DNA from: Escherichia coli
GTDB lineage: Bacteria > Pseudomonadota > Gammaproteobacteria > Enterobacterales > Enterobacteriaceae
Assembly: GCF_024223415.1 (NCBI RefSeq)
Contig: NZ_CP100501.1
Strand: one strand, 5' to 3'
Length of the DNA: 64,000 bases
Positions within the stretch are counted from its first letter, which is position 1. Every line of letters begins with the position of its first letter. A program made the position numbers and the translations under genes. A model generated the notes under the pieces. That model had not been told where the DNA came from, ran no database searches, and saw only the letters and a program-made list of their open reading frames with translations. Below are positions 3,826 to 49,234 of the stretch, one piece after another.

Positions 3826-3879
3826 TTATGTGAAATGCTGTCCCGCTATGGAATCAGAATTGAGTAACGACACGAGGTT

Positions 3880-4197
3880 TTGATGATTACTGTTATTATT
3901 TCTGAGGTGGATGGCTGGCGTGAATGGAAACACCGCGCCCGAACAAAGGATGCACAGACAGCCATCATCCGGGCTATGAATAAACATTTTCCACGATCTT
4001 ACAATTTTATCCCTGATGATATTGATAATGCACCTGTATTATTTGCAGCTGTAACACGTACACCGAACGTGAAAATAACCGGTCATATCTGGAAACCTAT
4101 GTGGAACAGGGGAATTTGCTGGAACGTCAAAGGTCCGCCAGTAATCATCACGCTCATCCAAGGGGCCGCTTGGAATTCGGAAAATAAACCACGTTAA
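3880..4197 (+). CDS. Hypothetical protein (105 aa)
   Basis: ORF only; low-GC context; no recognisable motif. Confidence 0.35.
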   Translation: MMITVIISEVDGWREWKHRARTKDAQTAIIRAMNKHFPRSYNFIPDDIDNAPVLFAAVTRTPNVKITGHIWKPMWNRGICWNVKGPPVIITLIQGAAWNSENKPR

Positions 4198-4202
4198 GAC
4201 TA

Positions 4203-43206: not shown

Positions 43207-43396
43207 ATGTGTTCTTGCCCCCTTATTTCCAGACAGGGGTTGTATCTTAAGTTAATGTTACCCGCTGACGTCGATATTCTCGCGGAGAGCGATAACCCAA
43301 CGCACTGTGCGGATGGTTTTCATTGTAATGTTCGATCGCCACTGCAAGATTATGCAATGCCGTTCTTACATTCGGTTTCGGCATGAACGCGATGTA
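43207..43396. mobile_element. Fragment (about 190 bp) of the IS3-family element seen at 6411-7740
   Basis: About 95% identical to 6415-6600 (IS end plus orfB 3' end). Confidence 0.8.
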
Positions 43397-43451
43397 GTCT
43401 TCCTTGGGGTCCGCTTGGAAAACGGAAAATATCCCACGCTAAGACTATTTT

Positions 43452-44042
43452 CTATACAGTAACAGTTTGCTGTTTCGCTCTAACTCTCAGAATTGTTTGC
43501 CGTGTGGTTCGGAATTCCCTGGCAATAGCACTTATACTTGCTCCAGACTTAATGTGTTCGAGTACCTTCTGTTTTTGTTCTTCATTTAATACCGGTGGGC
43601 GACCAAAACGTTTTCCTGCATCCCGTGCTCTTGCTATCCCTGAATAAGTTCGTTCAAGTAAAAGATCTCGTTCAAATTCAGCGACCGCTGAAATCACTTG
43701 CATTGTCATTTTTCCTGCCGGACTGGTCAGATCAACACCACCTAATGCCAGGCAATGTACCCTGATGCCAGATTCGGTCAGTTGCTCCACTGTTTTCCTG
43801 ATATCCATTGCATTACGACCGAGGCGATCCAGTTTTGTGACTATCAATACATCGCCACTTTCCAGACGATCAAGCAACCGGTTAAAACCTGGACGTTCAC
43901 TGGCTGCTACTGATCCACTAATTTGTTCTTCGATTATTCGTTGGGGTCTGACGTTAAAACCCGCGCTTTCGATTTCCCGACGTTGATTTTCGGTCGTCTG
44001 TTCCAGAGTGGAAACCCGACAATAGGCAAAAATTCGAGACAT
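43452..44042 (-). CDS. Serine recombinase (resolvase/invertase family)
   Basis: N-terminal catalytic motif [10 protein letters not shown]-terminal HTH; 196 aa. Confidence 0.85.
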
Positions 44043-44069
44043 AGTGAGATCTTCTGTACGAAATGGGTG

Positions 44070-44180
44070 TACATATTATAATGCATGTCCGAAAGTAATT
44101 TCGCTGACTTTCGGATATATCTGTTTAACAATGTCCGAAACCGGTCGATTTCGGACACCAAAACCACTGTTGTCCCGCCA
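44070..44180. promoter_or_regulatory. res-like recombination site upstream of the serine recombinase gene
   Basis: Inverted repeats TGTCCGAAA..TTTCGGATA and TGTCCGAAACCGGTCGATTTCGGACA resembling resolvase binding half-sites. Confidence 0.5.
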
Positions 44181-44254
44181 TTCTGGCGATTCCTGAAAGC
44201 CCTTTGGCTAAAAAATAGTCTTAACATGGTTTATTTTCCGAATTCCAAACTGAC

Positions 44255-44462
44255 CCCGCTAACGCGGAGATACGTCCCGACTTCGGGTAAACCCTCGTCG
44301 GGACCACTCCGACCGCGCACAGAAGCTCTCTCATGGCTGAAAGCGGGTATGGCTTAGCAGGGCTGGGGATGGGTAAGGTGAAATCTATCAATCAGTACCG
44401 GCTTACGCCGGGCTTCGGCGGTTTTACTCCTGTGCCATATGCAACAACGGAGTGCCGCCTTA
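44255..44462. repeat. About 205-bp structured direct repeat, copy B
   Basis: See copy A at 1487-1692. Confidence 0.85.
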
Positions 44463-44542
44463 CATGCGCTGACGCGCATTATTTGCCTTGTTCCGTCTGA
44501 AACTAATCACTATGATTAAATATGATTAACAACTAATCGGGT

Positions 44543-44827
44543 ATGCAAATGAAAAACAATACCGCACAGGCAACAAAAGTCATTACCGCGCATGTGCCAT
44601 TACCAATGGCTGATAAAGTCGACCAGATGGCCGCCAGACTGGAACGCTCCCGGGGCTGGGTTATCAAACAGGCGCTTTCTGCATGGCTTGCCCAGGAGGA
44701 GGAGCGTAATCGCCTGACGCTGGAAGCCCTGGACGATGTGAAATCCGGACAGGTTATCGACCATCAGGCTGTACAGGCCTGGGCGGACAGCCTCAGTACT
44801 GACAATCCGTTACCGGTGCCACGCTGA
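44543..44827 (+). CDS. RHH (CopG/ParD-like) antitoxin
   Basis: 94 aa; upstream of and contiguous with a ParE/RelE-fold toxin gene. Confidence 0.7.
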   Translation: MQMKNNTAQATKVITAHVPLPMADKVDQMAARLERSRGWVIKQALSAWLAQEEERNRLTLEALDDVKSGQVIDHQAVQAWADSLSTDNPLPVPR

Positions 44828-45102
44828 TGGAACTGAAGTGGACCAGTAAGGCGCTTTCTGATTTGGCGCGGTTATATGATTTTCTGGTGCTGGCCAGTAA
44901 ACCTGCGGCCACCAGAACGGTGCAGTCCCTGACACAGGCACCGGTCATTCTGTTAACTCATCCACGTATGGGAGAACAGTTGTTTCAGTTTGAACCCAGG
45001 GAGGTCAGACGGATTTTTGCTGGCGAGTACGAAATCCGTTACGAACTTAATGGCCAGACTATTTATGTATTGCGCCTGTGGCACACACGAGAAAACAGGT
45101 AG
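44827..45102 (+). CDS. ParE/RelE-superfamily toxin
   Basis: 91 aa; YEIRYELNGQTIYVLRLWHTRE is typical of ParE/RelE C-termini. Confidence 0.75.
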   Translation: MELKWTSKALSDLARLYDFLVLASKPAATRTVQSLTQAPVILLTHPRMGEQLFQFEPREVRRIFAGEYEIRYELNGQTIYVLRLWHTRENR

Positions 45103-45207
45103 ATTGTGTGTGGGGACAACTTAACATAGCCTGCAGATATTAATTCTGGAACATTATTATCAGGCCAGATATTTTTCATTCCATTAAATAATCTTGTAGG
45201 AGATAAA

Positions 45208-45609: not shown

Positions 45610-46800
45610 TCAGGCCGGCACATACCTCAGCAGACTGATATCCCGCGCGTTTTTCTTCAGCCCTGATACATTCAGCCCCGCAAGGGCCCGGCGGTATACC
45701 ATCCGGCCGCCACACAGCACGCATTCGAACGGGTCACGACTCAGGAACTGTTTCACCATTTGTGCATAGCACACTTTCGCCACCGGTTCCGGTTTATCCA
45801 TCCCCAGAGCTCGGTACACCTGCGGCAGCTTCTCTCCACACCCCCGGTTGGCAAGGAACCCGAAGTACCTCACCATCTTAAAAAACTTCTCCGGGATGTG
45901 CTGTTTCATCCTCGCGACCAGCTCACGCTGCGTCAGCGTTTCCGTCGCTGTCTCTCCCGTTTTGTGGTCCAGGTAACGGAAGCTCAGGCTCGCCCCTCCG
46001 TTGTAATGTGCCAGCCGGGAAGCCGCTATTGGTGGCTTCTTCAGATAACGACCCAGGTAGCGTGCCGTATTCCGCCCGCCGGCCGTCTTCTTCGACATGT
46101 ACACATGCCAGTATTTTCCGCCGGCTTTCAGCACCAGGCTTCTCCACTGTGATTCCGTCGTGATATGTGACAACGACTCCGGCATCGCCATCCCCTCTGA
46201 CCACGCTTTCAGAAGCAACTGCCGTATATTCCACATCCACCGCGAACGCATTGCGTCTTTCAGGAAGCTCAGCTTTTTCCACTGACCGTGCTTATTCAGC
46301 CCCCCGCAGGTTACTGACACATGTACATGCGGATGCCAGTTGAGACGACGGCCATATGTGTGGATGGCGCAGAAGATACCGGGTTCCAGCCCCCGTTTTC
46401 GGGCGGCATACAGCAGCCAACGGTTGCTTTCGAACACCGGCCACAGCGTGTCCGGCAGGGTGAAGACCAGGTGTACCCAGTCGCAGTCAGGAAGACGATT
46501 CAGCTGTGTCGCTGTCCACAGGTCTGTGGCCTTTTTTCCGCAGGACGGGCAGGCACGGCTGCCACATGAGTTAGTGACGTATCTGACGTGGGGACAGTCA
46601 GGTTTATCGCAGTTGTATTCCTTCACGCCCAGTATCCGCGTGCCGCAGGCCAGCATTTTGGTGACAGCCTCAACCTCGATATCGCGCAGACCGCCCGCAT
46701 CCAGGAAGGACGTCCAGCACTGGTTGGCTGTGAACAGGCGTTTCAGCGGACGGGGCTGAAAATCACCACCACTTCGGGTCATCCATCCTGCACGCTCCAT
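45610..46800 (-). CDS. IS91-family rolling-circle (HUH, Y2) transposase; start uncertain
   Basis: Zinc-binding Cys cluster (CDKPDCPHVRYV..CGSRACPSCGKK), HUH motif HPHVHV, tyrosine motif YLGRYLKKPP. Confidence 0.8.
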   Translation of the reverse strand: MERAGWMTRSGGDFQPRPLKRLFTANQCWTSFLDAGGLRDIEVEAVTKMLACGTRILGVKEYNCDKPDCPHVRYVTNSCGSRACPSCGKKATDLWTATQLNRLPDCDWVHLVFTLPDTLWPVFESNRWLLYAARKRGLEPGIFCAIHTYGRRLNWHPHVHVSVTCGGLNKHGQWKKLSFLKDAMRSRWMWNIRQLLLKAWSEGMAMPESLSHITTESQWRSLVLKAGGKYWHVYMSKKTAGGRNTARYLGRYLKKPPIAASRLAHYNGGASLSFRYLDHKTGETATETLTQRELVARMKQHIPEKFFKMVRYFGFLANRGCGEKLPQVYRALGMDKPEPVAKVCYAQMVKQFLSRDPFECVLCGGRMVYRRALAGLNVSGLKKNARDISLLRYVPA

Positions 46801-47139
46801 CTGATAATGTTCTGACAGGTAAAAATAATATCCCGCATGATTTGTGTGCTCATGATTTCTGATAATATCAGATATGGTTTTATCATCAATGATGAAAATC
46901 ATATCTGATATGATTTTATGTGAATTGCTTAATTAGCATATCATTTGCCCGTTTCCCGCCGTGCAGATCCGGTTTCCGGCGAAGTCGGATCGACCTAATC
47001 TTTGTTTCTGATATGAACATCTCGGAGAGGTGTAAGCAATGGTATAAACGAAATGTATTATGTATCTGCATCACAGCATGCGGGCACATTTTGCGGCAGG
47101 ATATGAATCCCCCCGGAATAACTGGCAAAGGACAGATAA

Positions 47140-49234
47140 ATGGACATTGAAATACGCCACTGCAATAACATCGTACGAGCACATATCACCCTCACTGCCG
47201 ATAAACTGAACATTAAGTTTGCGCCAAATGGTACTGGAAAAAGTACGCTGTCACGGGCCATAAGCTGTGCGGCGCGGGACGACATTCAGGGACTACAGGC
47301 ACTGATGCCCTTCCGGCTGCGCGGAGAAAACCCCGATAGCACCGGGCCCATTGTCATCGGTGCTGACGGGATTGGGGACGTGATGTGCTTCAACGAGGAG
47401 TACGTCAGTCAGTTTACGTTCCAACCGGACGAGCTCATCAGTGACAGCTTTAATATTCTTATCCGCAATCAAGCCCATGCGGAAAGAGAGCGTGAAATAG
47501 AAGAAATGACGCAAAAGATCCGGGCTGTTTTCACGGATCACACTGAGCTGAACTCTCTGATAGACCATCTACAGGAACTCAGTAATGCTTTCAAATCAAC
47601 CAGTTCCGGGATTTCACGTTCTTCAACCGGCATGAGAGGTCTGTCAGGCGGAAATAAAATACACCACATTCCGGCTGGTCTTGAGAACTATCAACCCTAC
47701 ATCCGCAGTGAACGCCGCGTGGAATGGATTGACTGGCAGACAAAGGGACTCGAGTTTTCGCCCCTTTCGGATGGCTGCTGTCCGTTCTGTACCGGTGATA
47801 TCACGGGAAAGGAAGCACAAATTCGCCAAGTCAGAGAGGAATACGATAAATCCACCATTAAAAATGACGGAGAGCGCCAGAGAACGCCTTCTGGCCATTA
47901 CTATGCTTCAGAACGGTCCGGAAGCCGAACATATCGAGTACCTAGTGGCGTTGAAACGCCAGACCGATACGCTGACAGAGAAACTCACTGCGCTGAGAGG
48001 CCTGAATGTTTTCAGCCTGCAGGAACAGCAGAACGTTCGGGAGGTGCTCACTGCCAGGTTGATTGACCTGCAGTTCTTCCCTGATCTGCAATCCGAACTC
48101 ATGCAGGGGATCACCGACAGACTGAACGCGGCCCTTATGGACCTGATAAACCTTGCCGGACCGCTGCAGGGAAAAATTAACCGGCACCGGGACAGCATGA
48201 TCCGGCTGATCGCACAGCACAAAACAAACATCAATAATTTCCTCACTTATGCAGGCTATAAATACAGGGTGGATATAGCCGGCGAGGGAGAGCAGAGAAA
48301 ACTCAGGCTACGACACATAGATTTTGACGGGTACGTCAGCGGCGGTAGCCAGCATCTCAGCTATGGAGAACGGAACGCCTTTGCGATTGTGTTATTCATG
48401 TATGAATGCCTGTCAAAAAACCCGGGACTGATTATCCTTGATGATCCCATATCTTCTTTTGATAAAAACAAGAAGTTTGCCATTCTTGAAATGCTGTTCA
48501 GACGTGCAAGTGGTGAATGCCTGAAGAACCGGACTGTACTTATGCTGACGCATGACGTGGAGCCTGTGATTGACACGCTGAAGTCAGTCAGAAGGTTGTT
48601 CAGTAATCAGGTGACCGCCTCCTGCCTGCGCCTGTCTGCTGGAGTCATAGAAGAATTACCTGTTAACGACGGCGATATCATGACATTCATGCAGATCTGC
48701 AAATCCATCACCGCGTCAGCAGACTGTGAGGAGATCATTAAGCTCATCTATCTTCGTCGCTACTTTGAAATCGTTGACGAACGTGGTGATGCTTATCAGC
48801 TTCTATCCAATCTATTCCATCGACGCGTCGCCCCGCTGGATTATCGCGAGCCTGCCGCTGCGGGCTCGGGCTATCCCAAAATGGCTCCTGAGAAAATTCA
48901 GCAGGCCTTGCGGGATATCCGGGAGTATGTGGACAGTTTTGATTACCCGCGACTTCAGGCTCTCGTCAGCAGCCCAGATGAAATAAAAAACCTGTACCGT
49001 CGCTGTCGTAACGGCTATGAAAAACTGCAGGTATTCCGTTTACTGGAACTGGATCAGGACCATCCGGTAATACGAAAATTCGTTAACGAAACGTACCACA
49101 TTGAAAATGAGTTCATCTGTCAACTAGATCCGTCCAGATTCGATCTCATCCCGGAGTACGTGATTATGGAATGTGACAAGTTCATCGCCCTGCCACCGGC
49201 AGCAAACCAGAGCTCGGTTGCCCGTATCGCTTGA
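47140..49234 (+). CDS. Rad50-like ABC ATPase with CxxC hook and extra C-terminal domain (RloC/PrrC-like candidate); reading frame shifts near 47860-47870
   Basis: Walker A FAPNGTGKSTL, long coiled-coil insert with CPFC, signature LSYGERN, Walker B LIILDDP, H-loop LMLTHD, then about 215 aa; N part in frame 1, C part in frame 2. Confidence 0.55.

Follow-up and report, generated by a model that had tools for sequence, protein, structure and literature searches.

What kind of site do the paired repeats just upstream of the small serine resolvase gene in this Escherichia coli DNA form, and can the resolvase still act on it? The window analysed here, a single stretch of 64 kb, carries these repeats between the gene and a toxin-antitoxin pair. 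We propose that positions 44055-44157 are very probably a genuine Tn3-family res site of the adjacent TnpR, at which this protein would resolve plasmid multimers and repress tnpR, or would have done so until recently. As judged from sequence comparison, res and tnpR together are a remnant, on an E. coli virulence plasmid, of a Tn3-family transposon that lost its transposase. The features to which we refer are as follows.

43406-43443, plus strand: IR-L, a 38-bp Tn3-family terminal inverted repeat, GGGGTCCGCTTGGAAAACGGAAAATATCCCACGCTAAG, 8 bp beyond the tnpR stop codon.
43452-44042, minus strand: tnpR, a 196-residue small serine resolvase with an intact reading frame (Pfam Resolvase, 1e-38; HTH_7, 3e-9).
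44055-44076, minus strand: site III, gene-adjacent, two direct-repeat arms 13 bp apart.
44055-44063: strong arm of site III, TGTACGAAA.
44068-44076: inner arm of site III, TGTACATAT, weak in the window copy (position weight matrix score 1.7).
44075-44080, minus strand: TATAAT between sites II and III, the putative −10 element of the tnpR promoter, read from the sequence.
44086-44117, no strand assigned: site II, a 32-bp inverted repeat, TGTCCGAAA-14 bp-TTTCGGATA.
44118-44131, no strand assigned: the I-II spacer, 14 bp, unconserved (0.33 bits), its length invariant in 14 sequences.
44132-44157, no strand assigned: site I, the putative crossover site, a 26-bp inverted repeat with perfect 9-bp arms, TGTCCGAAA-ccggtcga-TTTCGGACA.
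44146-44257, minus strand: the distal half of site I, a 62-bp linker and IR-R, apparently derived from a miniature repeat-res-repeat element.
44220-44257, minus strand: IR-R, a 38-bp terminal repeat, GGGGTCAGTTTGGAATTCGGAAAATAAACCATGTTAAG, identical to IR-L at 30 of 38 positions.
Positions 2327-2612 of locus L001 (plasmid pMS1718-3, NZ_CP097714.1, IncK2/Z), and also in loci L021 and L022: a 286-bp gene-less repeat-res-repeat element.

An earlier note on this DNA had described two inverted-repeat units upstream of a serine recombinase gene and had read them as a multimer- or cointegrate-resolution site. Both units are real and have the sequence described (44132-44157 and 44086-44117), and the repeats lie 13-115 bp before the start codon at 44042 on the minus strand. 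The reading as a res site stands; the count of two subsites does not. We find three, the third of which (44055-44076) lies partly outside the range that the note had given and was absent from it, as were the Tn3-type terminal inverted repeats around the whole unit. Read outward from the gene, site III starts 13 bp from the ATG, site II follows and site I is most distal.

The dinucleotide in the middle of site I reads GT on the plus strand (44144-44145) and is non-palindromic, and in the 14-sequence alignment described below the CGnnCG core around it is conserved in site I and is not shared by sites II and III. The centres of sites I and II are 43 bp apart, or about 4.1 helical turns, and this distance is invariant across the relatives. 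Site II has a mismatch in one arm of the window copy; its 32-bp length and both arms are kept in all of the relatives, with 1.5-1.6 bits in the arms vs 0.7 in the centre. The inner TTTCG of the window's site II was also considered as a true arm and rejected, since it is not conserved. The two arms of site III have the same orientation, at offsets 9 and 22, in 14 of 14 sequences when scored with a matrix built from the site I and site II arms only, and their information content is 1.3-1.5 bits. Because TGTACA is itself palindromic, we considered that site III might be a 19-bp inverted repeat (TGTAC...GTACA); this reading is ruled out by the relatives with GGACA arms, which show one shared orientation. 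Dyad symmetry is present in sites I and II and absent from site III, a departure from the canonical layout of a Tn3-family res. The weak arm of site III and the mismatched arm of site II could impair the accessory function of the window copy.

Could the repeats have come together by chance? All three exact matches to TGTCCGAAA in the 64-kb window fall within 44055-44157. When up to one mismatch is allowed, the window contains 16 matches, and 5 of them lie in this interval of 103 bp. In 300 block shuffles the largest cluster per 110 bp was 2, vs the 5 observed. Similarly, when a position weight matrix was built from 12 relatives with the window excluded, the top four hits among 128,000 window positions lay inside the site. 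The shuffles and this leave-one-out matrix rule out a chance origin.

Conservation of the site was assessed at homologous loci. Searching the plasmid collection with tblastn showed that 1,893 records encode relatives of the resolvase. From these relatives we retrieved 13 homologous loci with 62-86% amino-acid identity to the window resolvase, in Gamma- and Alphaproteobacteria (Citrobacter, Salmonella, Klebsiella, Yersinia, Erwinia, Providencia, Vibrio, Arsenophonus, Sinorhizobium, Methylobacterium, Agrobacterium and Pseudosulfitobacter). The 130 bp before the start codons were aligned in 14 sequences, almost without gaps; the Sinorhizobium locus, in which site I is disrupted, was left out. The alignment contains six conserved 9-bp arms, arranged in three pairs at fixed spacing, with the consensus TGT[A/C]CGAAA. 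The arms carry 1.3-1.6 bits vs 0.2-0.7 bits in the spacers (Mann-Whitney p = 7e-16), and conservation is poor between sites I and II (0.33 bits), in the flank past site I (0.20) and in the leader (0.66). The conservation of arms and spacing upstream of homologous resolvase genes in two proteobacterial classes supports the interpretation of the repeats as a res-type resolution site.

The context of the site in its relatives points the same way. At the Vibrio locus the divergent neighbour is annotated as a Tn3 family transposase, and at the Citrobacter, Salmonella, Klebsiella and Yersinia loci an open reading frame beginning MPRRQILSSEE starts about 47 bp beyond site I and matches DUF4158, which we take to be the N-terminal domain of Tn3-family transposases. 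A divergent Tn3-family tnpA thus begins some 47 bp past site I in five relatives, and likewise in a 98%-identical copy on pECOED. The placement of the site between divergent tnpR and tnpA genes, as in Tn3, again favours the res reading and supports an origin as the cointegrate-resolution site of a transposon. In the window itself, 38-bp repeats of the form GGGG...TAAG bracket an 852-bp unit that consists of tnpR and res without tnpA; the Yersinia locus (L006) has a terminal repeat with one mismatch. Since the unit encodes no transposase, cointegrates of its own transposition are not available for resolution, which leaves plasmid multimers or recombination with a related res. Of the two functions that had been suggested for the site, cointegrate resolution therefore survives as its origin and not as a present role in resolving its own cointegrates. 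We looked for a 5-bp target duplication at the ends of the unit and did not find one (the flanks are tcctt and gctaa). Approximately 94 plasmids cover at least 80% of the unit with its 50-bp flanks; the best 30 of these, pAPEC-O1-ColBM among them, match across both flanks. A third, solitary Tn3-type terminal repeat of 38 bp with 5 mismatches lies elsewhere in the window, at 4161-4198 on the plus strand, downstream of the RepA and Phd-RelE region, and is probably another remnant of the same element family.

How did the unit come to have this form? IR-L, tnpR and res are also present, at 98% identity, in the pECOED locus (L019, NC_011754.1), whose res differs from that of the window at positions 3 and 10 of site I. 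The similarity starts exactly at the outer end of IR-L (43405/6), where the flanking DNA differs, and stops 9 bp past site I, after which pECOED continues into its divergent tnpA. From position 3840 downward, L019 has the arrangement of a parent-type transposon, in which IR-L, tnpR and res are followed by a divergent tnpA. The frame of this tnpA is open for 572 codons only and an IS600-family element lies upstream, and the pECOED copy is probably also defective. To the right of the site I centre, the window is about 97% identical to the 286-bp element of L001; to the left the identity is about 60%. Matches to the segment 44146-44257 occur in thousands of plasmids without a resolvase gene next to it. 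When the three sequences are aligned, the window agrees with the miniature element as far as TGTCCGAAATCG and with pECOED from ACCGGTTTCGGACA onward, and the switch in parentage falls between 44143 and 44146, within 2 bp of the centre of site I and touching the predicted cleavage dinucleotide. An identity switch at the site I centre is a reported signature of resolvase-mediated exchange between Tn3-family transposons (PMC7157771), and the joint in the window's site I, a further point in favour of a res and the closest that the comparison comes to functional evidence, looks like a past resolvase crossover. The central dinucleotide is TA in each of the four miniature-element copies that we examined, and GT/AC in the window and pECOED. 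If exactly these parents had undergone a clean exchange by a serine recombinase, the overlaps would be mismatched, and the TA centre of all four copies means that none of them is the actual parent.

The miniature element combines Tn3-type terminal repeats with a complete three-subsite res of the window resolvase's family. It matches 1,843 plasmids of IncF, IncI and IncK types, and in 563 of these the match spans 80% or more of the element; its flanks differ between plasmids, and no 5-bp duplication was seen. Plasmid pMS1718-3 encodes no resolvase of the window family, and its res is therefore an orphan. At L001 the yacA antitoxin gene follows directly after the element. We considered IS101, TIME244, IMU and MITESen1 as possible identities for it and rejected each of them: the sequences differ, and only the first 14 nucleotides of the MITESen1 terminal repeat match. 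The literature that we consulted on TIMEs (the class of miniature elements to which we return below) yielded no name for it.

Do tnpR and res persist merely as an inactive relic? On this explanation they would be a fragment of a decaying transposon that has lost recombination, and the repeats would be preserved through recent common descent. The lack of tnpA and of a target duplication, the degenerate arm of site III and the shared flanks of the best-matching plasmids, which give no sign of recent mobility, are what such a history would leave. We nevertheless regard it as unlikely. The tnpR frame is intact with all of its catalytic and interface motifs, and its conservation is 98-100% in more than 150 plasmids and on about 1,000 contigs. 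Four of the six window arms fit the family consensus perfectly or nearly so, and the pECOED copy, which shares sites II and III with the window, keeps its tnpA.

The enzyme itself bears on whether the site serves resolution or inversion. Public sources name the protein generically, as a 'recombinase family protein'. It has the catalytic Ser11 in an RVST motif, Arg9, a DRLGR motif and a C-terminal HTH_7 domain, and is 34% identical to a Tn3-type TnpR (L017). The crossover sites of invertases, hix and gix, are 26 bp long with a non-palindromic centre, and site I resembles them in both respects; likewise, the best match of TnpR in the PDB is the invertase Gin (7e-30), ahead of gamma-delta resolvase (7e-25) and Tn3 resolvase (3e-24). 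However, window residues Arg3, Arg35, Arg59 and Glu61 align with the R-interface residues Arg2, Arg32, Lys54 and Glu56 of Tn3 resolvase, and the equivalent of Arg2 is absent from Gin, whose N-terminus aligns as LIGY. In Tn3 resolvase, the residues of this R (2-3') interface are used for synapsis of the accessory sites (PMC9943657). Their conservation speaks for a resolvase and against an invertase, despite the marginally better score of Gin. In addition, a second paired-arm site with at most 4 mismatches is found on neither strand within the 64 kb, three adjacent subsites at conserved spacing are typical of resolvases, and the relatives are linked to a Tn3-family tnpA. We thus consider it very improbable that site I is a hix- or gix-like invertase crossover site.

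We propose that the res site would work as follows. TnpR dimers would bind the three subsites, with the C-terminal helix-turn-helix recognizing the 9-bp arms TGT[A/C]CGAAA. At site I, strand exchange would follow cleavage of both strands by Ser11 at the central dinucleotide (44144-45). By analogy with Tn3 and gamma-delta, the accessory sites II and III would intertwine two directly repeated res sites and so limit the reaction to intramolecular resolution. The layout also suggests autoregulation. Sites II and III cover the promoter region of tnpR, and TnpR should therefore repress its own gene. TATAAT or a close variant occupies the same alignment column in the enterobacterial relatives; the corresponding −35 position would fall inside site II and the transcript start within site III. 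A consensus promoter scan made no call on the gene strand, owing to the weak −35. It is scarcely credible that the arms play no part in recombination and serve purely as an operator in transcription, through which either the resolvase, as a repressor, or the RHH antitoxin encoded nearby would act: the arms do overlap the conserved −10 element, and an RHH/ParE pair lies 390 bp away, but in the relatives the motif stays with the resolvase gene whatever its other neighbours (chrA, ars, phage terminase and others), and site I sits 50-100 bp upstream of the promoter with its own CGnnCG core and the recombinant joint at its centre.

The surrounding DNA fits a ColV/ColBM-type IncF virulence plasmid. 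The window starts inside an IncFII-family repA; the coordinates of pAPEC-O1-ColBM are not co-linear with the window's left end, and the context there was read directly from the window's open reading frames. To the left of tnpR, at 39137-43097, an operon encodes an ABC iron transporter and an MFS transporter, with generic annotation in the record; we take it to be eitABCD. On the right side, an IS91-family transposase lies at 45610-46902, and at 47140-49234 an AAA-ATPase gene is split into two overlapping reading frames of 308 and 517 residues where pAPEC-O1-ColBM has a single 2,139-bp coding sequence, which may reflect a frameshift or a sequence difference. The repeat noted earlier as 205 bp long, whose copy B had been placed about 75 bp beyond 44180, does start there, at 44255, abutting the outer end of IR-R. 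It is 223 bp long, and its copies at 1487-1708 and 44255-44476 are 93.7% identical. A type II toxin-antitoxin pair lies a short way downstream of either copy, Phd/RelE-like at 1828-2363 and RHH/ParE at 44543-45102. The repeat matches thousands of IncF, IncI and IncK plasmids, and its single-stranded DNA fold has a modest z-score of −2.3. Rfam gave no match to it, nor to any part of 43300-45200. The RHH antitoxin and ParE toxin genes are on the site I side of res and are transcribed away from it. Toxin-antitoxin pairs inside Tn3-family transposons have been reported at that position, on the site I side (PMC7157771); the window pair lies outside IR-R, beyond the 223-bp repeat.

What does the site add? 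This kind of system is thoroughly known, and the general picture of Tn3-family resolution is unchanged. In the searchable literature we found no description of the window res site or of its resolvase family, and nothing relevant on the arm sequences, on the core sequence of Tn3 site I or on an eit operon together with a resolvase. The analysis provides a precise annotation (three subsites, crossover position and terminal repeats) for a gene present on about 1,000 contigs and on at least 150 ColV/ColBM-type and related plasmids. It also identifies a stretch of virulence plasmid backbone that appears to have been assembled by site-specific recombination at res, with a Tn3-family transposon as one partner and a widespread miniature element as the other. 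With its conserved direct-repeat site III and its uniformly shortened sites, the res is a natural variant that could inform models of the accessory sites in the synaptosome. Two further ideas are offered tentatively, and we hold them to be less probable than not. First, the res might have an architecture intermediate between those of Tn3 and Sin, with inverted-repeat sites I and II and a gene-proximal direct-repeat accessory site. The study of Sin put forward the idea that site III of Tn3 corresponds in function to Sin site II (PMC2428073), and an intermediate of this kind would be a natural test of that hypothesis. Second, and separately, the 286-bp element might be a still-active orphan res for resolvases supplied in trans. 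Such resolvases could then swap segments of plasmid backbone via the element, as has apparently happened in the window.

Finally, how does the site compare with known systems? Like Tn3 and gamma-delta (Tn1000), the window system has three subsites upstream of tnpR, with site III gene-adjacent and site I distal, and in its relatives tnpA is divergent; this order, with site III next to the gene, is that described for Tn3 (PMC7157771, PMC12217951). It further resembles Tn3 in its 38-bp GGGG...TAAG repeats, in its R-interface residues and in having a whole number of helical turns between sites I and II. A centre distance of 4-7 turns has been reported for the Tn3 family (PMC12217951), and the value of about 4 in the window is within this range. 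As a Tn3-type reference from the same data set, we used the res of L017, located between a gene annotated 'Tn3 family transposase' and tnpR. Its sites, with boundaries that we assigned from what we take to be the Tn3 arrangement, are 28, 34 and 25 bp long, with centre distances of 53 and 34.5 bp. The L017 arms CGTACGAAAT and TGTCCGATA closely resemble those of the window, and the distance between sites II and III, 36 bp in the window, is kept. However, sites I and II of the window are each 2 bp shorter (26 and 32 bp vs 28 and 34), and the I-II distance of 43 bp vs 53 is one turn less. The core of site I is G+C-rich with a non-palindromic centre (CGACCG), whereas that of Tn3 is TTATAA. The arms of site III are direct rather than inverted, the protein is only 34% identical, and the window has no tnpA.

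The direct-repeat site III has a parallel in Sin resH, and also in the six site of the beta recombinase: the gene-proximal accessory site of resH, Sin site II, likewise contains two direct-repeat motifs (PMC2428073). In contrast to the Sin and beta systems, which have only two recombinase-binding sites with an HU/IHF site between them, the window has three resolvase-type subsites, no evident site for an architectural protein, an inverted-repeat site II where Sin uses HU/IHF, and a Tn3-family context.

Miniature elements of the TIME type resemble the window unit in that Tn3-type terminal repeats enclose a res without a transposase, which is exactly the organization of the 286-bp element of L001. 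TIMEs are 50-500 bp long, carry no genes and are flanked by a 5-bp duplication; the window unit differs in its length of 852 bp, in encoding tnpR and in lacking the duplication. The L001 element agrees with TIMEs in its size, repeats and absence of genes, and lacks the duplication. IS101, TIME244, IMU and MITESen1 differ in sequence from the window unit as well as from the 286-bp element. The change of parental identity at the centre of site I is similar to the inter-transposon recombination described for Tn5501.12 and TnTsp1 (PMC7157771). Unlike in those cases, one of the window's parents is a miniature element rather than a full transposon, and the central dinucleotides of the surviving parents mismatch.

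The res/Res system of SGI1 has arm sequences of its own and a different spacing (sites of 28, 30 and 25 bp, with a I-II distance of 51 bp), and it has been demonstrated by EMSA and recombination assays, whereas the window system is known from its sequence. It shares with the window a Tn3-like, three-subsite res that lies upstream of a small serine resolvase outside a functional transposon (PMC12217951). The site I centre of SGI1 res is non-palindromic (AC), box II is shortened and box III is only weakly symmetric, and SGI1 Res represents a restored Tn3-like resolution system that removes multimers (PMC12217951).
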